The notes beneath the pieces are model-generated. The model searched no databases. It was not told where the DNA came from and saw nothing but the letters and a program-made list of their open reading frames with translations. Position numbers and translations under genes: made by a program. Shown piece after piece: positions 33,398 to 49,479 of a stretch of DNA of 64,000 nt. Positions within the stretch are counted from its first letter, which is position 1, and each line of letters opens with the position of its first letter. The stretch is from an uncultured bacterium (GTDB lineage Bacteria > Verrucomicrobiota > Kiritimatiellia > RFP12 > UBA1067): NCBI GenBank assembly GCA_902802945.1, contig CADCOC010000002.1, forward strand, positions 9,853 to 73,852, in the 5' to 3' direction.

Positions 33398-34042
33398 ATG
33401 CGGCTTTACCATGGATCTAAATCTGGCTTGACGGGGACGATCGCCCCCGTTAGCCGTGATGTCTGCGACTTCGGACGTGGCTTCTACATGGGCACGGAGA
33501 AGACGCAGCCGCTTACGCTCATCTGCCATGGCGAGTCGCCTAAGTTCTACGAGATCGACTATGATCTTGACGGGTTGCGTGTATATCGTTTTGAGGCAAA
33601 CTTGGACTGGGCCATGTTCGTGGTGTGGAACAGACGGGCGATTCCTGAACGGCTCAAGCCGTATTACGACGAAAAGTTCCTGCCAATAGTGCAATCGAAC
33701 GACGTGATTGTCGGCAAGATCGCCAATGACCGCATGGTTGTGGTGTTGGACTGGTTCTTTCAGGGATTCATTTCCGACATCGGACTTCTGGAGTCGCTTC
33801 AGGCGCTTAACCTCGGCGACCAGTACTGCGCAAAGACGGCGGAGGCTTGTACGCGCGTCAGAATCGTGAACGAAAAGTCGCTTTCGCCCAACGAATGCGA
33901 AATGTTGCGCGTCAAATCAGAGAATCAGCGCAAACTCGCCGTAAGGATGGTGGATCGCATCAGGCTCCTCCATCGCCGCGATGGAATGATCTTTCAGGAA
34001 ATCATCGAGCGAGACACGGGGAGGAAATGGGATGAACCTTGA
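33398..34042 (+). CDS. DUF3990 domain protein
   Basis: MRLYHGSKSGLTGTIAPVSRDVCDFGRGFYMGTEKTQPLT matches the DUF3990 N-terminal signature (LYHGS...DFG.GFY). This is the first gene of the low-GC island. Confidence 0.7.
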   Translation: MRLYHGSKSGLTGTIAPVSRDVCDFGRGFYMGTEKTQPLTLICHGESPKFYEIDYDLDGLRVYRFEANLDWAMFVVWNRRAIPERLKPYYDEKFLPIVQSNDVIVGKIANDRMVVVLDWFFQGFISDIGLLESLQALNLGDQYCAKTAEACTRVRIVNEKSLSPNECEMLRVKSENQRKLAVRMVDRIRLLHRRDGMIFQEIIERDTGRKWDEP

Positions 34043-34466
34043 CGTGTTCCAGATGCAGCAATGCGAGAACCAGGGACGGCTCTTCGAGAGCCTTGACCGG
34101 CGTCCCGTCGACGCGAAGGCGTTTATCAAGGCGTTCATGAACTCGCGTGCGGCGGCGGGGCTGGACTCGACCTTCGATCATTTCCAGTGGGCTGGCATCG
34201 AATACATCTACGAGGATGTCGTGGAGGAGTTCAACCTCCAGCCAGATCCGAACCCGCCGCGCTACAACACCGAGGCGCTTTGGTACGGCGGCTATATCAC
34301 GCGCTACTGGCACTATCTCACGGGCGAGACGATGAAGGAAATCTACTCCCAGTGCGATGAGAATCTTCTGCTTCAGTGCTACGGTTTCCATTCCGAAGCC
34401 AACGAATTGGCCATCGAGGACATCAAGGCGATAGCACAAAACAGGATCGGGGATAATATGGTATAA
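34032..34466 (+). CDS. Hypothetical protein with a DUF3791-like C-terminal region. It is a partner of DUF3990 and overlaps it by 11 nt.
   Basis: The C-terminal ...MKEIYSQCDENLLLQCYGFHSEANELAIEDIKAI resembles the DUF3791 pattern seen in the 36681 and 37381 proteins. Confidence 0.45.
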   Translation: MNLDVFQMQQCENQGRLFESLDRRPVDAKAFIKAFMNSRAAAGLDSTFDHFQWAGIEYIYEDVVEEFNLQPDPNPPRYNTEALWYGGYITRYWHYLTGETMKEIYSQCDENLLLQCYGFHSEANELAIEDIKAIAQNRIGDNMV

Positions 34467-34467
34467 T
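34459..34467 (+). promoter_or_regulatory. Extended -10 TGGTATAAT, overlapping the stop of the upstream gene and ahead of the ATPase gene
   Basis: 'ataatatggtataatact', then 'gaaagga' and ATG 34498. Confidence 0.35.
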
Positions 34468-34497
34468 ACTTCCCGGTTTAGAAAGGAATTCTTGCCA

Positions 34498-35802
34498 ATG
34501 GCATGTACAACTCTTACATTGAAATTAGAGAACTACAAGGCGATAAGGGATGCCACCATCGCACTTGATGACATCACTGTACTTTCGGGAGTCAATGCAT
34601 CTGGGAAGAGTACCATTGCTCATGTATTCCACGGTATCATAAACCTCAGCGCAACTTATAATGAATGGGCGATCAGGTCTGCATGGTCAATGCTCGCGCC
34701 GCTCGTATGGGAGATAGCAAGTTTGGTTGGAAGGTTGTCCAATGGGAATGGTTATGAAGGAGGTGCGCTGAACAATGCCATCGTTGATGATTTTGATCGC
34801 AATCTGCTCGTGCGTCCGTATTCCGATACGATCAAGGCCGTGAGTGATGTTTTGTCCAATATCGGAGACCAGATCGTCGCTCGTAAGGAAGATGAAAGTG
34901 CAATAAGGGCTTTTGACGTTTTCCTTAGAAACATCTCTAAGCACAATGAGATATCGGCCGAAAACTATGCCGCACGAGTCAGAAACCTGTTGGGCGAGTC
35001 GCAGGCGAAATACGAGGAATTGATTCGCCAACGTGTTTATACGGCATACAATGTTGCTGCTCCTAAGATGCGCGATTGGCTGATGTTTCCCGGGACAATT
35101 CGTTTTTCAGAGGGCGATACGGTCGTATATCATACGAAGAAGACCCAAACGAGCAATGCCCAGCCGATGTCGGACTTGAAAGAAATCTACGGCGTAAAGA
35201 GGGCAATCTACATTGAGTCGCCGTGGACAAGCATTCCGACACTACAGAAAGACGGGCGGCTTGATATGCACGACGGGTATGTTTATCCTGTCGGGAAATT
35301 GAGTAATCAACCGAAAGCTGGATTGTTTGAAGTCTTAGGCGGTAGCTTGAAAAACGAAGATGGACATTGGCAGTATTTGCGTAAAGATGGCTTGCCGCCT
35401 ATCGACCTTTCAATATGTGCGACCGGCATGAAGGCGCTGTCCATCCTCGAGATTTTGCATGATGGCGGGTATTTGGACGACGACACGCTCTTGATCGTTG
35501 ACGAGCCAGAAGCCCACTTGCACCCGCAATGGGTATTTGAGTATGCCAAGATTCTCGTGGCTTTGAACCGCAAGTACCAAGTGCGCCTGCTCATTACCAG
35601 TCACAATCCCGACATGGTCAACGCCATCAGGACAATAGCAGATGAAGAAGGAGTGGAGGGTTTGCGCTTTTATGTGTCGGAACCCGTCAACGACAGTCCA
35701 TACGATTTCACCTATCGAGACCTTGGGCGCGATATCGAACCGATCTTCGCGACTTTCAACAAGGCGCTTGATAGCATAGAGTCTTACCGGGGGCGCGCTT
35801 GA
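34498..35802 (+). CDS. ABC/AAA_21-type (SMC/RecF-like) ATPase. It is a component of a candidate two-gene defence or abortive-infection-like module.
   Basis: Walker A LSGVNASGKSTI, a signature-like CATGMKALSILEIL, Walker B LLIVDEPEAHLHPQ and an H-loop ITSHNPD. The architecture is typical of defence-island ATPases. Confidence 0.65.
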   Translation: MACTTLTLKLENYKAIRDATIALDDITVLSGVNASGKSTIAHVFHGIINLSATYNEWAIRSAWSMLAPLVWEIASLVGRLSNGNGYEGGALNNAIVDDFDRNLLVRPYSDTIKAVSDVLSNIGDQIVARKEDESAIRAFDVFLRNISKHNEISAENYAARVRNLLGESQAKYEELIRQRVYTAYNVAAPKMRDWLMFPGTIRFSEGDTVVYHTKKTQTSNAQPMSDLKEIYGVKRAIYIESPWTSIPTLQKDGRLDMHDGYVYPVGKLSNQPKAGLFEVLGGSLKNEDGHWQYLRKDGLPPIDLSICATGMKALSILEILHDGGYLDDDTLLIVDEPEAHLHPQWVFEYAKILVALNRKYQVRLLITSHNPDMVNAIRTIADEEGVEGLRFYVSEPVNDSPYDFTYRDLGRDIEPIFATFNKALDSIESYRGRA

Positions 35803-36425
35803 TGCGTATTTTATCGGGACAGGGCGGCAGGATTTTCCTCACGGATGCGATTCACCCAGTATCCAATGAGTGCATTGGGTTGAGGGATGGAATGCAGAAG
35901 ATGTTTGACGAAGGCATTTCCGCGCTTGACACCAATGAAGACCTCGACGAGACCGTGCGTGCTGTCGCACGGAATGACCTTGAACAGGAACGACCCGCCT
36001 GCAATGAAATCGCGGATTCGCTTTATGTGGTCAATGGCGACGCATGGTCGAACCGCATTGACGCCGAGGCCGGCCAGCCCTTTGCCAAATCTGTCGATTT
36101 GCTCGTGCCAGTTGAGGAGGACGGCTCTTCGTCTATCCTGTTTGTCGAGGGCAAGTTGGGGCTTGCACCTCGCGAACGGCGAAGCCGGCTGCGAAATCCG
36201 CGCTATGCCGATGTGGTAGAGAAATACTGCGCGACAAAATCAAAGGTCTGTCGAGAACATCCCGTCATGCTCTGTCGGACAATGAATCTGATCGTGCCAG
36301 CAGCCGTGCGTGAAGTGGCGCGGAACACATTCTCCCGTCGAAACATGACGAATCAAGTTTGCAGCATCATGCCAATTGACGCACGTGGATTCCTTTTCGG
36401 AATTGGAGTGCCAACCGTCAACTAA
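35802..36425 (+). CDS. Hypothetical 207-aa protein translationally coupled to the ATPase (1-nt TGATG overlap). It is the candidate effector subunit.
   Basis: No confident family. It contains an acidic 'SSILFVEGKLG' motif reminiscent of TOPRIM/DUF4276 (ilvEG) motifs, and a C/H-rich CATKSKVCREHPVMLC stretch. Confidence 0.4.
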   Translation: MRILSGQGGRIFLTDAIHPVSNECIGLRDGMQKMFDEGISALDTNEDLDETVRAVARNDLEQERPACNEIADSLYVVNGDAWSNRIDAEAGQPFAKSVDLLVPVEEDGSSSILFVEGKLGLAPRERRSRLRNPRYADVVEKYCATKSKVCREHPVMLCRTMNLIVPAAVREVARNTFSRRNMTNQVCSIMPIDARGFLFGIGVPTVN

Positions 36426-36497
36426 AGAAAGAGGGAAAATTGAAATGAACGGGCGTGCGCGCATCATTCTTCATACTTGTGCTACATGGGTCGAAAA

Positions 36498-36506
36498 TGG
36501 TATAAT
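36498..36506 (+). promoter_or_regulatory. Extended -10 TGGTATAAT upstream of the DUF3791/DUF3990/LRR operon
   Basis: 'aaaatggtataattaaa', then 'gagggaag' and ATG 36533. Confidence 0.4.
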
Positions 36507-36532: not shown

Positions 36533-36706
36533 ATGAGCGAAGAGGAAAAGAACAATCTATTCTACGTCTGCTCCCTGATCGAGTATGTGGGGCGCAGGAC
36601 CGCAGGACGAAGAACCGTCGCGGCGACGTGGTCGCCGCGATGGACGACGCTTGCCTCAAAAACAAGTCGGAGGTGCTGCCGTGAGCACAACTTCCATAAC
36701 GAATAA
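36533..36706 (+). CDS. Small ORF (57 aa) with a DUF3791-like N-terminus (NLFYVCSLIEYVG). It is possibly a decayed DUF3791 paralog.
   Basis: Good RBS. The C-terminal half is Arg-rich and low-complexity, and it overlaps the next gene. Confidence 0.3.
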   Translation: MSEEEKNNLFYVCSLIEYVGRRTAGRRTVAATWSPRWTTLASKTSRRCCREHNFHNE

Positions 36707-36917
36707 GCGCGAATTGGAATTCGCCGTGTTCTGCATTGAAAACGTCGCTGCAGCTTGTGGAAAGTCGTCAGGCGATGTCTATCGGGCGTTGTCCGGTGAG
36801 GACGGCATCCTTCATCAATACATCGTGCCGAGTTATGATGTTCTTCACACGCAAGGGAAGGACTACATCGTCAACGACATCCGCGAGGTCATGGCGGAGA
36901 GAGGTGTCGTCGTATGA
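36681..36917 (+). CDS. DUF3791 domain protein
   Basis: GTG start after 'ggaggtg'. LEFAVFCIENVAAACGKSSGDVYRALSGEDGILHQYIVPSYDVLHTQGKDYIVNDIREVM is a canonical DUF3791. Confidence 0.7.
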   Translation: MSTTSITNKRELEFAVFCIENVAAACGKSSGDVYRALSGEDGILHQYIVPSYDVLHTQGKDYIVNDIREVMAERGVVV

Positions 36918-37384
36918 TTCTCTACCATGGCGGAGCCGTTGCGATTGCAGCGCCAGATCTCCTACACTCTCGTAGGGCTGTTGACTTTGGCCCTGGATTC
37001 TACGTGACGCCCATATATGATCAAGCGAGAAGGTGGAGCGAAAAACGGAAAAGGCGCTTGGGCGCTGCCGTCGTATCGAAGTATGAGTTTGATGAAGACG
37101 CTGCCGCAAACCTTAAGATTTTGCGGTTCGATTCATATTCCGAGGCATGGCTTGATTTCATCGTAAAATGCCGCGCGATTGAAGATGATTCTGATTGGGA
37201 TGTCGTATCCGGAGGCGTTGCCAATGACAAGGTGTTTGACACGCTTGAAGCATTCTTTGATGGCTTCGCAACGAAAGCTCAGACCATTGACAGGTTGCGG
37301 ATGGAATCGCCAAACATGCAGTATTGCTTTCGAACTCAGGCTGCTTTGGGCATGCTGCATTTCACGGGGAGCGAGCAGATATGA
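36914..37384 (+). CDS. DUF3990 domain protein (second copy)
   Basis: MILYHGGAVAIAAPDLLHSRRAVDFGPGFYVTPIYDQARRWSEKR. It overlaps the upstream gene by 4 nt. Confidence 0.7.
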   Translation: MILYHGGAVAIAAPDLLHSRRAVDFGPGFYVTPIYDQARRWSEKRKRRLGAAVVSKYEFDEDAAANLKILRFDSYSEAWLDFIVKCRAIEDDSDWDVVSGGVANDKVFDTLEAFFDGFATKAQTIDRLRMESPNMQYCFRTQAALGMLHFTGSEQI

Positions 37385-37602
37385 CGGCGAACAAGAACCT
37401 GCTTCGGATGAAATTCGCCCGTGTGATCGAGGCGTATGCCGCCCGCACTGGCTGTTCGCTTGACGAGGCGCTGGATTGCTTCTATCGCTCGCAGACCTAC
37501 GAGTTGATGCGTGATGGCATATCAGACATGCATTGCATGAGCGACGAGTATCTCGTAGATGAATTGATTGATGAAAAAAACTTGAAAGGAACGGGAAAAT
37601 GA
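37381..37602 (+). CDS. DUF3791-like small protein
   Basis: ATGA overlap with the upstream gene. LRMKFARVIEAYAARTGCSLDEALDCFYRSQTYELMRDGISDMHCMSDEYLVDELI follows the DUF3791 pattern. Confidence 0.55.
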   Translation: MTANKNLLRMKFARVIEAYAARTGCSLDEALDCFYRSQTYELMRDGISDMHCMSDEYLVDELIDEKNLKGTGK

Positions 37603-39383
37603 AAAAGGCAATTTTGTTTTTTGCCGCGATGGCGGCAACAATGGCGGCACTCACCGCGCACGCCGATAACTGGACCGATCCCTCAACGGGCATCACGTGG
37701 ACGTACACGGTCAGCAGTGGCAATGCGTCGTTGGGACGTGGGTGGGATTCTCCCGCCGTACCAACCACAACAACTGGCGCATTGACCATCCCATCCACAA
37801 TCAACGGCCATTCCGTGACTAGCATAGGGGAACGTGCGTTCTCTAGTTGCAGTGGGCTTACGAGCGTGATGATACCCGACAGCGTGACGAGCATCGGGCC
37901 TTCTGCGTTCCGCAATTGCAGCGGTCTTACGAACATGACGATACCTGACTCGGTGACGAGCATCGGGGATGGGGCGTTCGATTGTAGTGGATTGACGAAT
38001 GTTACGATACCTGACGGCGTGACGAGCATTGGTAATGAAGCGTTCTTCTATTGCAGCGGTCTTACAAGCGTGACGATACCGGACAGCGTGACGAGCATCG
38101 GGTATCGGGCATTTTCCTACTGTAGCGGGCTTCTGTCTTTTACTGTCGGCGATGGCAATGTAAACTACAAGTCGGTAAACGGCTTGTTGTTGTCTAAGGA
38201 TGACAAGACGCTTATTGCAGGCGTAAATGGCGACGTGATGATACCGGATGGCGTGACGAGTATAGATGATGCGGCGTTTAGCGATCGTAGCGGGCTTACG
38301 AGCGTGACGATACCGAACAGTGTGACAAACATCGGGTATTCTGCGTTCTCCAGCTGCAGCGGTCTTACGAGCGTGACGATACCTGACTGCGTGACGAACA
38401 TCGGTAATGAAGCGTTCAGGGGTTGCAGTGGGCTTAAGAGTGTGAAGATCGGCAACGGCGTTATGAGCATCGGGATTAATGCGTTCTACAATTGCAGCGG
38501 ACTTACGAGCGTGACATTCCTTGGACATCCTCCGCAGGGAGTATCAGATTCCTGCCTGGGTACTTATGCCTGTAGTTTCAAGTGTCCGAGACAATTAGGC
38601 TCTGAATATATCAGTTTATTAGGCAGGTCAAAGTTTTCGGGATTTGTTGAGGACCTGCCATTGACGGTTGTGCAGATTATATCTTCTGGCATTCGCGAAA
38701 ACGATCCGACGGTGATGGATGTGGTATATAAGGTTACGAGCGCAAAACCGACGGTCAAAGTGCGGGCGTTGGCGTTTGAGGATGGCGAGCGGAGTTTTGC
38801 CAAGGTAGTACGTCCGGAAGCATTCGTGAACGACTCCGATGGTAATTCTACGGCGCAGAACATCGGTGATGCGGTTGTGGCCAATGTGCCGCATAAACTT
38901 TCATGGAAAGTGTCGAGCGAATGGGCTACGAGACTTGCAAAGGTGAAGTTCGAGGTGCTGGCGTGTGAGGGCGAACCATTGCGTTTGGAGTTGCGCACGA
39001 TTCCCGCATCAGACCAATACGGCAAGATGAAGATTTCTTGGAATGTTATTTCAGACGCCCAATTTTTGGATGCAATGTTTTGGCTGTATGCTGATAAGGA
39101 TAGTGGATTTAAAGTGGAGAATGGAATCATAAAGCGTACATCGGATAATTTCTTGATGTCCTATGATGGGTGCGCTATCTCGACATTTTCTCGTAATTCT
39201 AGGCAGTATGTCAATGGCGTGCGGAATTACTATGATTTTGCATCCGTTCCAGAGTATGTTTTTGCGAAGATGGGGTATTCTTTGCTTTCGGGCGATACGC
39301 TGACCTACGCCAATCAGGAGACCCGCCTTGGCTTGTCGCCGAGTGGCGCACGCCAATATGCCTACAAGATCGTGGAGGAGTAA
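37599..39383 (+). CDS. Secreted BspA-type leucine-rich-repeat (LRR_5) cell-surface protein with a C-terminal domain of unknown function
   Basis: Signal peptide MKKAILFFAAMAATMAALTAHA. There are more than 10 repeats of IPDSVTSIG..AF..CSGLTSV. The start overlaps the stop of the upstream DUF3791 gene (ATGA). GC is low. Confidence 0.8.
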   Translation: MKKAILFFAAMAATMAALTAHADNWTDPSTGITWTYTVSSGNASLGRGWDSPAVPTTTTGALTIPSTINGHSVTSIGERAFSSCSGLTSVMIPDSVTSIGPSAFRNCSGLTNMTIPDSVTSIGDGAFDCSGLTNVTIPDGVTSIGNEAFFYCSGLTSVTIPDSVTSIGYRAFSYCSGLLSFTVGDGNVNYKSVNGLLLSKDDKTLIAGVNGDVMIPDGVTSIDDAAFSDRSGLTSVTIPNSVTNIGYSAFSSCSGLTSVTIPDCVTNIGNEAFRGCSGLKSVKIGNGVMSIGINAFYNCSGLTSVTFLGHPPQGVSDSCLGTYACSFKCPRQLGSEYISLLGRSKFSGFVEDLPLTVVQIISSGIRENDPTVMDVVYKVTSAKPTVKVRALAFEDGERSFAKVVRPEAFVNDSDGNSTAQNIGDAVVANVPHKLSWKVSSEWATRLAKVKFEVLACEGEPLRLELRTIPASDQYGKMKISWNVISDAQFLDAMFWLYADKDSGFKVENGIIKRTSDNFLMSYDGCAISTFSRNSRQYVNGVRNYYDFASVPEYVFAKMGYSLLSGDTLTYANQETRLGLSPSGARQYAYKIVEE

Positions 39384-39386
39384 GGG

Positions 39387-39480
39387 GCCAAAGAGACAAA
39401 AGGGAGGAACGTGACAAAAGAGACGATAGTGATTGGAGGAGCTGAGGCCAAAGAGGCTTGCAGTCGCTTTTGTCTCTTGG
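39387..39480. repeat. Intergenic cluster of 'CAAAGAGAC' 9-mer repeats forming an inverted repeat (CCAAAGAGACAAAAG ... CTTTTGTCTCTTGG)
   Basis: Read directly at 39389-39403 and 39467-39480. Related 9-mers (GAAGCGACT/AAAGGGACT and their reverse complements) recur at 40201-40304, 41661-41745 and 58364-58391. Confidence 0.6.
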
Positions 39481-39492
39481 AGGGTAATGCCC

Positions 39493-40182
39493 ATGGCTGA
39501 GATACCGAAAATCGTGCTGCCTCATGGCGGCTACCGCAATCTCGTGGCCTACAAAAAGAGCGAAATCGTGTATCAGGGCACGGCGCTCTTCTGTCGCCGC
39601 TTTCTGCCGCCGAATGGCGACCGCACCGTTGACCAGATGCCCCAGGCCGCCCGCAGCTGCAAGCAGAACATCGCCGAAGGCTCGGCCGCAAGCGGTACGT
39701 CGAAGGAAACCGAGCTTAAGCTTACCAACGTCGCGCGGGCAACGCTTGACGAACTGCTGGAAGATTACCTTGATTGGCTCAAGTCACACGGCGAAAGCGA
39801 ATGGACCGCTCGCGACGAGCGCAAGATCAAGGCCCGCGACCTCGGCAAGGAGCACGACGACTGGGAGTTCTGGCAGCCGCTCCTTGAATCGCGTCCGGCG
39901 GAGGTTGTCGCCAACCTGATGATCGTGATCATCTACCAGACGCGCTACCTCCTTGATCGCATGATCGCCTTTCAGGAAGCGGATTTCACGAAACACGGCG
40001 GTGTGCGCGAGCGGATGCACGCCGCCCGCACGGTAGCTCGCGGCGATGAATGGGATAAGGCGATCTACTCGCGGCTCGACGGCGCCGCGAACGCCGCAGA
40101 ACTCGCCGAAAGACTGGCCGAGATCAAACGCCAGGCCGAAAAGGCCGCCTGGGGCATTAGGAAGCGGAGGGGTTGGCAATGA
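39493..40182 (+). CDS. Four-helix-bundle protein (TIGR02436, the '23S rRNA intervening sequence protein' / bAvd-like family) with a C-terminal extension
   Basis: PHGGYRNLVAYKKSEIVYQGTALFCRRFLP...DQMPQAARSCKQNIAEGSA is the family signature. RBS 'ggaggg'. Confidence 0.65.
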   Translation: MAEIPKIVLPHGGYRNLVAYKKSEIVYQGTALFCRRFLPPNGDRTVDQMPQAARSCKQNIAEGSAASGTSKETELKLTNVARATLDELLEDYLDWLKSHGESEWTARDERKIKARDLGKEHDDWEFWQPLLESRPAEVVANLMIVIIYQTRYLLDRMIAFQEADFTKHGGVRERMHAARTVARGDEWDKAIYSRLDGAANAAELAERLAEIKRQAEKAAWGIRKRRGWQ

Positions 40183-42914
40183 GAATTAGAAGGGCGGAAG
40201 AAGCGACGGAAGCGACTAAAGGGACTAAAGCGACGGAAGCGACCAAAGCGACTGCTAGGGGCTTTCGCAGGAGTCGCTTGGGTCTCTTGAGTCTCTTTGG
40301 TCTCTTGATTCCCATGGGGCTTTTTGCCGATATCGTGCATGTTTACGAGCGGTCGCTGGCTGGCGGCGTAGCCAGCCAGATGAGCGACCGTACGCTCGAC
40401 ACCGGCAATACCTACTCAACCCAAAGCGCCCCCGCGAAGAGCGGCTACATCTTCACCCACTGGTCGATTTCGGTTGCGCAGCCAATCGATAACCGCGACC
40501 GTTTGGGTCGGGCGAAAGAAGTTACATCATTCACGCTCTACGAGGAAACCACGCTCACGGCCAACTATCTGGCTGAAGGTGAGGATTCCGACAACGACGG
40601 CATCGCCGACGGCTGGGAAATCTATTGGTATGGCGACCTTTCAAAGAATGCTTCGAGCGATACCGACAACGACGGCTTCACCTTCGCTGAGGAACTCGCG
40701 GCGGGTACCGACCCGCTTATGCCCGACGAATCGCTTCCCGGAGGCATCGTTTGGCAGGATGGCGCGCTTGTGCAGTACAATCCCGACAACCTTCAGCCCT
40801 ATACGATTCGCAGCGAGCCGGAAGGCGCGCTCTTCGCGACGGTAAGAGACTATCTGAAGCCGGGGCAGGTGATACCTATACCATATTCAGGGACACAAGG
40901 AACGCAAGGGACAGGTTTTGCATACTGGACGATCGACGGCGTGCGTCAGGCCGATAGGCACGGAAGGGCGCTTGACACGCTTTCGGTGACGATGCCGAAC
41001 ACTGCAATCGAGATTGTTGCCGTCTCCGAGAGCGACGAGGCGAAGCGCAATTCGCTCTACTGGTACGGCACCGCTTCCGTTGCGCAGAACAGCGACACCG
41101 ACAACGACGGCTTCACCTTTGCCGAGGAACTGGCGGCGGGCACCGATCCGCTAATGCCCGACGAATCGCTTCCCGGAGGCATCGTCTGGCAGGATGGCGC
41201 GCTTTTGGAAATGAACCTCCAGCCCTACGAGCAGGTGCTAGGCGCAGTCGTTGGCGGGGCGTATTCGCAGGTGTTTACTTCGCCAGTCGCTGGCAACGCC
41301 GCCACGAGCGCGACCTTCGGCAACGGCGGCGCCGTGTGGCCGGTGGTGGCCGATGTGAATGGCGATGGGCTGTGGGATTTGGTGGTGTGTTGGGAAGGTG
41401 AAGGGGAAGAGACGCAAGGGACTGCACCGCTTACACAATCGCTGACCATTTTCATCAATGTGGGCACCAAGGGCAACCCCGAGTTTGAGGTTGATGTGAG
41501 CGGCGCGCTCGGCGAGCGCGCCCTACCGTGGCTGGCGATGAACTCGCCCGAGAAGCTTGCCGGGCTTTCGCTCGACGTGCCTGCGCCGGGTGATGCGCTT
41601 TCGGCCACCACCAACGGCACCGCGCTTCTGGTGAGCGATAGCGAGGGCCGAATCTGGTATTATAAAGGGACGCAAGCGACAGAAGCGACTGAAGGGACTT
41701 CACCAACATCCCAGTCGCTTGAGTCTCTTGAGTCTCTTTCGTCGCTTTCCTTCACCCTCCAGCACAAGGTGTGGGGGGGCTCACACGCCGGCTTTGCGCA
41801 GGGGCTACGGCTCGCGGCGGTTGACTGGGATGATGATGGCGATCTCGACTGCCTTGCGGGTACCGCCGACGGCAAGCTGATGCTGTTGCGCGATCCGAAG
41901 GTGGGGCGGCCCACGAACCTGAAGGCGCTCGCTGGCGTGGATAACGTGCTGCTCACGTGGGATCCGAACGCGCAGAGCCGCATCAGGGGGTATAGGGTTT
42001 ATCGTGCGGAGGGGGAAGGAACAGCAAGCGTACAACAACAAGGTGGGGAGTCGACTTCGGGGACTGAGGGCTTTACGCGGATTGCGCAGCCGCAGCTGCC
42101 GACTTACCGCGATTTCCCGAACGGCGGTCACGGGGTGACCGCCCTACCGGAATACGCCTACAAGGTATCATCGGTGAGCCGGTTCTACACCGCCGGCAAC
42201 TCGACGCCCACGGAAACGGAATCGCCCGCGACCGAGGCGGTGACGGCGCGGCTGGGCAGCGTGCGCTTCTTCTGGAACGACGCGGCTACGAAGGTGGGCG
42301 AGCAGTTCGAGGTGATGCTTTCAATAGAAAACTCGATGAACTACTCCGTGACTGGCCAGACTGAGGTGGTTGCCTACGATCCAGAGTATTTGACGCCCGT
42401 GAAGGTGGTGAAAACGGGGCTCACGGAGGAGTGTGTGATTGAAGAGACTCACGGGACGAAAGAGACGCAAGGGACAGGGACGGAAGTGACCGGCGAGTGG
42501 CGGATCACGGTGAGTGGCGCGAGCGGGACAGCAAGCGTACAACAGCAAGGTGGGGCGGTCATTTTGCCGGCTGGCGGCGGGAAGTTCCTTTCGCTCGTTT
42601 TTGAAGCGAAGAAGGAGGGCGTGACGACGGTCGGCGGTCGCGGGGCGACCGCCCTGCCGGCGAGCGATGGGGCGTATGCCACGGTGAGCATTGCGGCGCG
42701 CTCGGTGATCGCGCCCTACCAGCTCGGCGACGTGGATGGCGACGGCGATGTGGATGAGGCCGATTTGCGGCTTCTGGCGAAGCTGTATAGTTCGCAGGGG
42801 GGCGCATCTATCGATGACAATCAGCGCAAGGCAGGCGATTTCAACGGAAACGGTAAGCTCGACAATGCTGATTACCAGGCGTTGAGGGCGTTGTTGAAAG
42901 AAAGGGGACTTTGA
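40179..42914 (+). CDS. Large secreted protein with TSP3-like (DTDNDG) repeats, FG-GAP/VCBS repeats, an Fn3 domain, a cohesin-like domain and a C-terminal type-I dockerin
   Basis: Dockerin DVDGDGDVDEADLRLLAKLY...DFNGNGKLDNADYQALRALL. FG-GAP ADVNGDGLWDLVV and VDWDDDGDLDCLAG. Cohesin-like YDPEYLTPVKVVKTGL. The N-terminal signal anchor is encoded through 9-mer tandem repeats. The gene contains R1, R2 and R3 mini-repeats. Confidence 0.7.
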   Translation: MRIRRAEEATEATKGTKATEATKATARGFRRSRLGLLSLFGLLIPMGLFADIVHVYERSLAGGVASQMSDRTLDTGNTYSTQSAPAKSGYIFTHWSISVAQPIDNRDRLGRAKEVTSFTLYEETTLTANYLAEGEDSDNDGIADGWEIYWYGDLSKNASSDTDNDGFTFAEELAAGTDPLMPDESLPGGIVWQDGALVQYNPDNLQPYTIRSEPEGALFATVRDYLKPGQVIPIPYSGTQGTQGTGFAYWTIDGVRQADRHGRALDTLSVTMPNTAIEIVAVSESDEAKRNSLYWYGTASVAQNSDTDNDGFTFAEELAAGTDPLMPDESLPGGIVWQDGALLEMNLQPYEQVLGAVVGGAYSQVFTSPVAGNAATSATFGNGGAVWPVVADVNGDGLWDLVVCWEGEGEETQGTAPLTQSLTIFINVGTKGNPEFEVDVSGALGERALPWLAMNSPEKLAGLSLDVPAPGDALSATTNGTALLVSDSEGRIWYYKGTQATEATEGTSPTSQSLESLESLSSLSFTLQHKVWGGSHAGFAQGLRLAAVDWDDDGDLDCLAGTADGKLMLLRDPKVGRPTNLKALAGVDNVLLTWDPNAQSRIRGYRVYRAEGEGTASVQQQGGESTSGTEGFTRIAQPQLPTYRDFPNGGHGVTALPEYAYKVSSVSRFYTAGNSTPTETESPATEAVTARLGSVRFFWNDAATKVGEQFEVMLSIENSMNYSVTGQTEVVAYDPEYLTPVKVVKTGLTEECVIEETHGTKETQGTGTEVTGEWRITVSGASGTASVQQQGGAVILPAGGGKFLSLVFEAKKEGVTTVGGRGATALPASDGAYATVSIAARSVIAPYQLGDVDGDGDVDEADLRLLAKLYSSQGGASIDDNQRKAGDFNGNGKLDNADYQALRALLKERGL
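42126..42150 (+). repeat. R1 in-frame palindromic mini-repeat (GGTCACGGGGTGACCGCCCTACCGG), encoding GHGVTALP
   Basis: Family consensus is GGYC(R)(S)rGGGc(K)GRCC-GCCCTRCCG. Other copies are at 42636-42660, 42973-42996, 47245-47317 (an inverted pair) and 48799-48823. Confidence 0.75.
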
Positions 42915-49428: not shown

Positions 49429-49470
49429 ACGCACTTTTCTCGCCGGTGCAGTTGCGGGCGGGGGAGTATA

Positions 49471-49479
49471 TGGTATAAT
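49471..49479 (+). promoter_or_regulatory. Extended -10 TGGTATAAT
   Basis: 'agtatatggtataataacc', 29 nt before ATG 49508 with an A-rich RBS region. Confidence 0.4.

Follow-up and report, generated by a model that had tools for sequence, protein, structure and literature searches.

A 64,000-nucleotide stretch of DNA from an uncultured bacterium of the Kiritimatiellia (assembly GCA_902802945.1, contig CADCOC010000002.1, positions 9,853 to 73,852; hereafter the window) carries at 34498-36425 two overlapping genes that form a translationally coupled operon. The first encodes an ATP-binding cassette (ABC) ATPase resembling those of the OLD, PARIS and Septu systems, while the second encodes a small partner protein predicted to be a nuclease of the PD-(D/E)xK type. 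Based on the family of the ATPase, the fold predicted for the partner, the linkage of the two genes, their genomic context and the precedent of the phage defence operon WonAB, we lean towards the view that the pair is an anti-phage or anti-mobile-element defence system, belonging by analogy to the class in which an OLD-type ABC ATPase sensor is combined with a nuclease effector. On the narrower claim that it represents an unnamed and widespread defence family, with a PD-(D/E)xK effector outside the described sequence families, we are evenly divided.

Organization of the operon

The two genes and the putative expression signals ahead of them are as follows:

34498-35802, + strand: ATPase gene, 434 amino acids (aa), OLD-type ABC ATPase (AAA_15/AAA_21), ATG start in the table of open reading frames (ORFs)
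35802-36425, + strand: partner gene, 207 aa, predicted nuclease effector, ATG start in the ORF table
34459-34467, + strand: extended -10-like element TGGTATAAT, 31 nucleotides (nt) 5' of the ATPase ATG
34481-34486, + strand: ribosome-binding-like site AAAGGA, 3' of TGGTATAAT

A preliminary description of this DNA, made from the sequence alone, had reported two genes overlapping by 1 nt, and the ORF table and the junction bear this out, as the boundary reads GCT TGATG CGT with one base common to stop and start. An alternative TTG start of the ATPase at 34492, two codons 5' of the ATG at 34498, is unlikely because the ATPase homologues are also 434 aa long.

The extended -10 element that had been placed ahead of the ATPase gene was found as a perfect match to the consensus, overlapping the stop codon of a 144-aa ORF located upstream. 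In the window, 0.09 copies of the 9-mer would be expected and three are present, each 26-35 nt 5' of an ATG; the 10-mer ATGGTATAAT (extended -10, TGnTATAAT) lies at 34458-34467, 36497-36506 and 49470-49479, all on the + strand and in all three cases followed by a purine-rich stretch and an ATG at 26-35 nt. The element is not listed in the two-hexamer promoter scan and is a match to the consensus only. Yet, since the 9-mer is overrepresented and stands each time 26-35 nt from an ATG, TGGTATAAT/ATGGTATAAT is probably a real promoter type of the source organism, and the pair probably has a promoter of its own.

The ATPase

The ATPase matches the Pfam families AAA_15 (2.8e-17, 63.9 bits, cut-off 32.1) and AAA_21 (2.1e-11, 44.9 bits, cut-off 27). 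Walker A, a signature-like segment, Walker B and an H-loop had all been recognized in the preliminary description; they are present, and their core residues are invariant in an alignment of 20 homologues sharing 34-86% identity (alignment A3):

34588-34614, + strand: Walker A GVNASGKST, residues 31-39; G31, N33, S35, G36, K37 and S38 invariant
35416-35433, + strand: degenerate ABC signature CATGMK, residues 307-312; A308 and G310 invariant, C307 and T309 in at least 90%
35488-35529, + strand: Walker B and D-loop region LLIVDEPEAHLHPQ, residues 331-344, with D335 and E336; L331, L332, D335, E336, P337, E338, H340, L341, H342, P343 and Q344 invariant
35593-35613, + strand: H-loop ITSHNPD, residues 366-372; H369 and P371 invariant, D372 in at least 90%

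In the AlphaFold model (predicted local distance difference test, pLDDT, 86), the ABC head is split and holds an insertion, helical as well as beta-rich, that spans approximately residues 54-300. The C-terminal extension (~389-432) is conserved as well, with F391, G410, I416, F417 and N421 invariant in the 20 homologues. Foldseek matched the model to an SMC head, retron Eco8, PtuA (Septu, retron I-A), Rad50 and AriA, with E values from 7e-6 to 1e-3. Among the PADLOC models, NsnB gave the best single match (71 bits, 3.4e-20), along with AriA (69 bits), HEC-02A (62), PD-T4-4_A (54) and Old (53), all partial and each confined to the Walker A region and the region from signature to H-loop. The ATPase scored far under the cut-offs of the NCBIfam equivalogs PtuA, MAD3, RecF and Rad50, and it does not group with RecF/RecN-type repair proteins, as its RecF match (~1e-3) is confined to the Walker A region. 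Taking the Pfam families, the motifs and the Foldseek neighbours together, the earlier assignment to the group of OLD, PARIS, Septu and AbiL stands: judged by its sequence, the protein belongs to the clade of OLD/PARIS/Septu-type ABC ATPases and looks active, and it appears as a full-length member of no catalogued family.

The partner, a candidate PD-(D/E)xK nuclease

The partner matches nothing in Pfam, NCBIfam, PADLOC or the PDB sequences. The same holds for 20 of its divergent relatives and for 10 partners from loci of GTDB species, mostly Bacteroidales, none of which belongs to a Pfam, NCBIfam or PADLOC family; a PDB profile search was likewise empty, and single sub-threshold matches among the relatives were to Hjc (E 0.018) and CARF_PDDEXK (0.024). 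No housekeeping family was thus matched in the libraries. Structure prediction, which the preliminary description had proposed, yielded a restriction-endonuclease-like nuclease core. The AlphaFold model (pLDDT 81, predicted template modelling score 0.82) consists of three N-terminal helices (~1-70) followed by a beta(75-78)-alpha-beta-beta-alpha-beta-alpha-beta core, in which D99 begins the strand 100-106 and E116-x-K118 ends the strand 109-117. Searched against the PDB with Foldseek, the model had no significant match; the closest structural matches are DNA restriction enzymes, and the core (alpha-beta-beta-beta-alpha-beta) is similar to that of solved nucleases. The residues that may form the active site are:

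36039-36041, + strand: D80 (NGD), candidate extra acidic residue of the active site, where helix 79-89 starts; role inferred
36090-36098, + strand: S97-V98-D99, which supplies the 'D' of PD-(D/E)xK where strand 100-106 begins
36147-36155, + strand: E116-G117-K118, the '(D/E)xK', within ILFVEGK, at the end of strand 109-117
36222-36224, + strand: K141 (EKY), in the helix after the core hairpin, conserved; role inferred

Conservation supports this assignment at two depths. In alignment A2, which holds 21 partner proteins (identity to the window protein 13-28% once its close subfamily is set aside), M1, D99, E116, K118 and K141 are invariant, and D80, S97, G120 and P133 are nearly so. In a census of 82 family members, with a background identity of ~20%, position 80 is D/E in 76, position 97 is S/T in 73, position 99 is D in 78, position 116 is E/D in 80, and position 141 is K in 80 members, while position 118 is K in 60 and R in 13 (K/R in 73/82). 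Since the catalytic residues are kept at so low a background identity, the partner is likely to have a working active site. Thus, as predicted from the model and the alignments, it is a small protein with a PD-(D/E)xK restriction-endonuclease-like core, a putative nuclease effector that would represent a PD-(D/E)xK family outside the described sequence families.

ILFVEGK had previously been compared to the acidic catalytic motifs of TOPRIM/DUF4276 proteins. An acidic catalytic motif it does appear to be; however, because D99 and E116-x-K118 form the classic PD-(D/E)xK hairpin in the model, it is better read as the (D/E)xK of a restriction-endonuclease fold, and a TOPRIM/DUF4276 identity was rejected, as neither profile nor fold gave a signal for it. 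Similarly, the statement that the partner fits no described effector family holds for the sequence libraries, while its fold can now be assigned to PD-(D/E)xK. The C/H-rich C-terminal stretch that had been noted is slight, amounting to four Cys and one His in 65 residues, and poorly conserved, as only C187 and C150 are retained, and those among close homologues only. Many distant partners (P0132-P0147 in A2) have a CxxC ~15 residues before NGD/DGD and two Cys near the C-terminus, a pattern that suggests a structural zinc site in these relatives; of these Cys, the subfamily of the window partner has kept only C67 and C187.

Linkage and distribution of the pair

In nearly all genomes that have one of the two genes, ATPase and partner gene lie next to each other or overlap. 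Close relatives of the partner form ten clusters at 58% identity or more among 5.8 billion proteins, and every sufficiently long contig with such a relative has the ATPase immediately upstream, with a 1- or 4-nt overlap (loci L001-L008). The flanking genes differ, being an FGE-sulfatase and a Y1 transposase in L001-L004 and DUF1016_N and leucine-rich repeat (LRR) proteins in L005. A profile search of 1.84 billion representatives added ~20 further partners of 200-220 aa (E 1e-15 to 1e-4); identities are 58-84% among the closest partners and under 30% beyond, and the alignment of close partners found no relative in 185,579 GTDB species representatives.

From the side of the ATPase, homologues at 35-38% identity are followed by 202-212-aa proteins with the same motif, as seen in L014, in L015 and in the Kiritimatiellae metagenome-assembled genome RGIG2266 (L010/L016), where the ATPase is 38% identical and the pair is linked. 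A pattern scan over GTDB, with each species represented by one genome, gave at least 267 ATPase relatives, of which 80 loci were kept; the ORF right after the ATPase matches the hidden Markov model (HMM) of the partner at E<1e-3 in 63 of the 80 and at E<10 in 73. When the distant partners P0131 and P0133 were taken as the start, the search led back to the same ATPase family (E 1e-113 and 1e-164). The pair is therefore syntenic in many genomes.

The ATPase relatives belong mostly to gut and rumen Bacteroidales (Bacteroides, Prevotella, Parabacteroides, Alistipes, Muribaculaceae, Paludibacteraceae), and others occur in Kiritimatiellae, Lentisphaeraceae, Cloacimonadota, WOR-3, Lachnospiraceae, Oscillospiraceae, Ruminococcus and Lactobacillales. 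The pair is patchily distributed across phyla, and it lies in variable regions, in some cases adjoining restriction, BREX and AbiL genes. Two further loci deserve mention. The metagenome contig ERZ15610161 NODE_964 (L012, 1-11326) carries four different AAA_15/AAA_21 ATPase genes within 11 kb, one of them followed by a DUF4435 (PARIS/AbiL-like) gene, and its homologue of the window ATPase has no partner ORF after it. The unverified human-gut phage contig MT835532.1 (L103, 3107-5036) encodes a distant ATPase relative (HMM E 1.5e-47) and, overlapping it, a 194-aa ORF with the motif S-I-D...F-V-E-F-K...H-K, possibly a form of the module carried by a phage.

Relation to WonAB and other ATPase-nuclease systems

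The closest precedent is WonAB (Nat Microbiol 2025, PMC12137116), a prophage-borne two-gene operon encoding an OLD-type ABC ATPase and a PD-(D/E)xK nuclease. Protection by WonAB against ICP1 and E. coli Vequintavirinae requires both genes and the catalytic residues, and the defence is a lysis-independent abortive infection without bulk DNA degradation (PMC12137116). The stability of WonB depends on the ATPase activity of WonA, as WonB is lost when the ATPase is inactivated, and WonB is predicted to bind the dimerised C-terminal extensions of WonA (PMC12137116). The authors tie WonAB to an 'OLD-ABC ATPase + novel REase (restriction endonuclease)' operon present in 0.96% of genomes, and to PD-T4-4 (PMC12137116).

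For comparison, 12 nuclease and 9 ATPase sequences of the WonAB family, the ATPases truncated there to 400 aa, were taken from the supplement of the same paper. The window pair shares with WonAB the gene order, with the ATPase first and the small PD-(D/E)xK gene second, as well as an OLD-type ABC ATPase carrying a C-terminal extension. The catalytic hairpins also align, S-x-D99...E116-x-K118 of the window partner with C-D...E-L-K71 of WonB/Novel REase. At the level of sequence, however, the two are apart. Comparison of the nuclease alignments A2 and A5 with hhalign covered 22 columns only (E 0.3, probability 0.2), and homology between the nucleases was thus not established; VDG, CD, ELK and Q are invariant in the 12 WonB/Novel REase nucleases, and the window partner has K141 where the WonB family has the invariant Q. 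Moreover, the window partner is 207 aa long, compared with ~135-190 aa in the WonB family, and has an extra N-terminal helical region. The WonAB-family ATPases match the window family with 29-72 bits in the Walker A and signature-to-H-loop regions only, no closer than NsnB or AriA, and none of the 9 sequences shows full-length homology. R182 of WonA stands in '(F/Y)IPA.R(S/N)', and the window ATPase has YIESPW at 238-243, an equivalence that is our own reading, made without an alignment. Sequences typical of the window family, such as NASGKST, DEPEAHLH and VEGKLG, were not found in the part of the WonAB hit tables available to us. Membership of the WonAB family was consequently rejected at the sequence level, given the 22-column nuclease alignment and the motif-only ATPase matches. 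Judged by these comparisons, the pair has the WonAB architecture in a separate sequence family, and by analogy it probably follows the same logic. 'Uncharacterised', the term first applied to the system, therefore holds for the sequence family only and not for the kind of system, because WonAB and PD-T4-4 are validated combinations of an ATPase with a PD-(D/E)xK nuclease.

PD-T4-4 is an E. coli two-gene defence consisting of an ABC ATPase and a small nuclease with predicted PD-(D/E)xK residues (PMC12137116), a layout shared by the window pair. Yet, PD-T4-4_A models match the window ATPase partially (54 bits), whereas a genuine PD-T4-4_A beside one homologous pair is matched at 7.5e-75, and membership was rejected, as the A model is partial and the B model does not match the partner. 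In PARIS, an AAA_15/AAA_21 ATPase likewise precedes a nuclease, and the ATPase scaffold is modelled to release the nuclease upon sensing a trigger. The window ATPase has AriA among its best matches in PADLOC and in the PDB sequences, though only in part, with two stretches in PADLOC and residues 310-375 only in the PDB; AriB is a TOPRIM/DUF4435 protein, while the window partner gives no signal for DUF4435 and has the fold of a restriction endonuclease. Without DUF4435 or a match to AriB, membership of PARIS was rejected.

The ATPase fold is also near that of PtuA (Foldseek E ~5e-5), and the layout of ATPase and nuclease is common to the PtuAB of Septu and of retron I-A/Ec78. PtuB is, however, an HNH nuclease, and the window pair was not assigned to Septu, since the partner has no HNH match and the ATPase scores 33.9 bits with the NCBIfam PtuA model against a cut-off of 500. 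NsnB of Menshen is the best single PADLOC match of the window ATPase; still, Menshen needs NsnA (ParB-DUF262), and NsnB has DUF3696 and degenerate Walker B and Q motifs, while the Walker B of the window ATPase is intact. As neither DUF262 nor DUF3696 was found in the pair or its neighbours, Menshen was discarded as well. Finally, OLD, Gabija GajA and retron Eco8 have ATPases of the same clade, but with a TOPRIM nuclease fused to them, whereas in the window pair the ATPase lacks any nuclease domain and the restriction-endonuclease fold is found in a protein of its own, which rules out a fusion of the OLD/Gabija type. Searches of the two proteins with the Pfam, NCBIfam and PADLOC models have thus placed the ATPase in AAA_15/AAA_21 with partial PADLOC matches, and the partner in no family.

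Genomic neighbourhood

The operon is located in a segment of lower guanine-plus-cytosine (GC) content, where it is 0.47-0.56 (~33.25-39.5 kb), compared with 0.60-0.67 in the sequence to either side. Together with the Pfam matches of the flanking genes, this agrees with the ~6-kb lower-GC segment between DUF3990/DUF3791 cassettes reported in the preliminary description. The neighbouring features are:

33398-34042, + strand: DUF3990 protein, separate module upstream (Pfam 7.5e-28; PADLOC PDC-M13B, PDC-M42A)
34032-34466, + strand: 144-aa ORF overlapping the DUF3990 gene (PADLOC PDC-M42B, 5.7e-5)
36585-36917, + strand: DUF3791 protein, downstream module (Pfam)
36914-37384, + strand: DUF3990 protein, downstream module (Pfam)
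37324-37602, + strand: DUF3791 protein, downstream module (Pfam)

The upstream DUF3990 gene and 144-aa ORF accompany the pair only in L001-L004 and are missing in L005, L010 and L014; because they are present only with the closest relatives of the pair, they are regarded as a separate neighbour. The downstream cassette (36585-37602) matches PDC-M13B (9e-60) and PDC-M13C (1.5e-33) in PADLOC. DUF3990, a member of the ADP-ribosyltransferase clan, is also found as the toxin tip of Rhs proteins, and the DUF3990/DUF3791 cassettes are probably toxin/immunity-like modules. Since the cassettes match PDC-M42/PDC-M13 and DUF3990 is of this clan, the neighbourhood may be described as a small conflict-gene island, in keeping with the defence-island context suggested earlier. 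The island of the window is 100% identical in several cattle-rumen metagenome contigs. A mobile-element account of it was rejected, as no tRNA, integrase or flanking repeats were found.

In other species, family matches were counted among 127 immediate neighbours of the pair (census A4). The defence and mobility genes among them include type I, IIG and IV restriction enzymes, PglX, PglZ, AbiLi, PD-T4-4_A, PDC-S57, SWI2/SNF2 and ResIII helicases, T5orf172 proteins and integrases. Several pairs (L014, 5001-6940; L015, 489-2404) lie inside polysaccharide/capsule clusters with glycosyltransferase, Wzy, DegT, RmlD and epimerase genes; the pairs may be there because such clusters are hot spots of insertion, or because of some functional connection.

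In the window, the downstream cassette is followed further 3' by a BspA-type LRR protein and then a four-helix-bundle protein. BspA-type LRR and TSP3/dockerin/cohesin proteins recur 3' of the pair (window 37599-39383 and 40173-42914; L001, L005, L008 and L010, which are related Kiritimatiellae-like rumen genomes), and the locus seems to behave as a variable hot spot in a conserved frame, because these downstream proteins recur while the genes in between vary. The four-helix-bundle gene (39433-40182) resembles the '23S rRNA intervening sequence protein' and is flanked by GAC-containing repeats with a 9-nt period at 39382-39425 and 40192-40253, the downstream ones encoding the N-terminal EATKATEATKGTKATEAT repeat of a dockerin-type protein of 913 aa. 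A short ORF from the ATG at 36533 (MSEEEKNNLFYVCSLIEYVGRRT..., window 36533-36720) contains a perfect 8-bp tandem duplication, two copies of CGCAGGAC at 36593-36608, that is found in 5/5 identical rumen contigs; with one CGCAGGAC copy removed, the frame reads ...KNRRGDVVAAMDD..., and the ORF may be a decayed DUF3791-like gene or a separate small gene.

Proposed function and alternative explanations

By analogy with WonAB, PARIS and Septu, the ATPase would dimerise or oligomerise and bind the nuclease, possibly through its C-terminal extension (~389-432), keeping it inactive or stable. An infection cue, together with ATP binding or hydrolysis, would then release or activate the nuclease, which could cut DNA or RNA of the phage or the host, leading either to direct restriction or to abortive infection.

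Several observations weigh against a role in defence. No defence model in PADLOC matches the partner, and those that match the ATPase do so only in part (54-71 bits), which leaves membership of a validated system unsupported. The island in the window has no tRNA, integrase, mobility gene or flanking repeats. The share of defence genes among the neighbours in other species is qualitative only, and many of these neighbours are housekeeping or capsule/sugar-nucleotide genes. In addition, a scan of IMG/VR with the ATPase alignment and strict patterns gave no confirmed relative, and tblastn against phages and plasmids found no partner and only partial matches of the ATPase.

Among the alternatives, the one that survives best, although it is unlikely, is direct, non-abortive restriction of the McrBC or type IV kind, in which an NTPase motor or clamp would load the PD-(D/E)xK nuclease on foreign, perhaps modified, DNA without sequestration and release. 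McrBC also consists of an NTPase and a PD-(D/E)xK partner, and this common layout, the DNA restriction enzymes among the best structural matches of the partner, the lack of a methyltransferase adjacent to the pair, and the type I, IIG and IV restriction genes adjoining some homologous pairs would all fit such a role. However, the ATPase is of the ABC/SMC-head type and not of the AAA+ type of McrB, Pfam recognizes no DNA-reader domain in either protein, and PARIS, Septu and WonAB, which have the same type of ATPase, use regulated effectors, WonAB being abortive.

Slightly less probable still is a toxin-antitoxin-like addiction module, with a nuclease toxin checked by the ATPase and serving mainly to stabilise the island rather than to respond to phages. 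The tight coupling and overlap of the two genes and their position between the probable DUF3990/DUF3791 toxin/immunity cassettes could point in this direction, as could the loss of WonB upon inactivation of WonA, which indicates that the ATPase controls the nuclease (PMC12137116). Yet, the tested systems of like design act as phage defence, the island has no mobile-element hallmarks around it, and plasmids and phages, on which addiction modules flourish, carry the family rarely or not at all.

Far less plausible is a housekeeping DNA-repair or recombination pair, in which a small Rad50/Mre11- or RecF-like ATPase would work with a nuclease of the resolvase type. Its appeal lies in the ATPase fold, which also matches Rad50 and SMC heads, in weak RecF and Rad50 N-terminal matches, and in the sub-threshold Hjc match of one partner relative (E 0.018). 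Nevertheless, the ATPase has no coiled coil, and its RecF/Rad50 matches (E ~1e-3) cover the Walker A region only; the distribution across phyla is patchy, with partner identities falling from 58-84% among the closest to under 30% beyond, the close partner family is not found in the 185,579 GTDB species representatives, and the context is low-GC and accessory. Just as remote is a catalytically dead restriction-fold partner acting as nucleic-acid binder or adaptor for an ATPase that is the functional core. Inactive restriction-endonuclease domains serving as sensors are documented in Menshen NsnA and give this reading a precedent, but those domains are without PD-(D/E)xK residues. Here, D99, E116, K118 and K141 persist in 73-80 of the 82 members despite their great divergence, a pattern that speaks for selection on catalysis.

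Implications

Defence systems combining an OLD-type ABC ATPase with a separate nuclease, including PARIS, Septu, WonAB and PD-T4-4, are emerging as a large class, and how their ATPases sense infection and control the nuclease is still being worked out. The inserts of the window ATPase are unlike those of WonA, AriA and PtuA and, if the pair is indeed a defence system, it may sense another trigger or cut another target. PADLOC 2.0, Pfam and NCBIfam have missed its lineage entirely, although hundreds of species have it. These include many abundant Bacteroidales of the gut and rumen, a group with poorly known phage defences. If true, the defence assignment would mean that gut Bacteroidales possess a further major immune system not yet in the catalogues. 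Validation would improve the annotation of immunity in the gut microbiome, provide a fresh ATPase-nuclease pairing for comparative mechanistic work and contribute a new PD-(D/E)xK family for classification. It would overturn no concept, as the kind of system is already known, and what it would bring is a sequence family that is new and widespread in gut and rumen bacteria.

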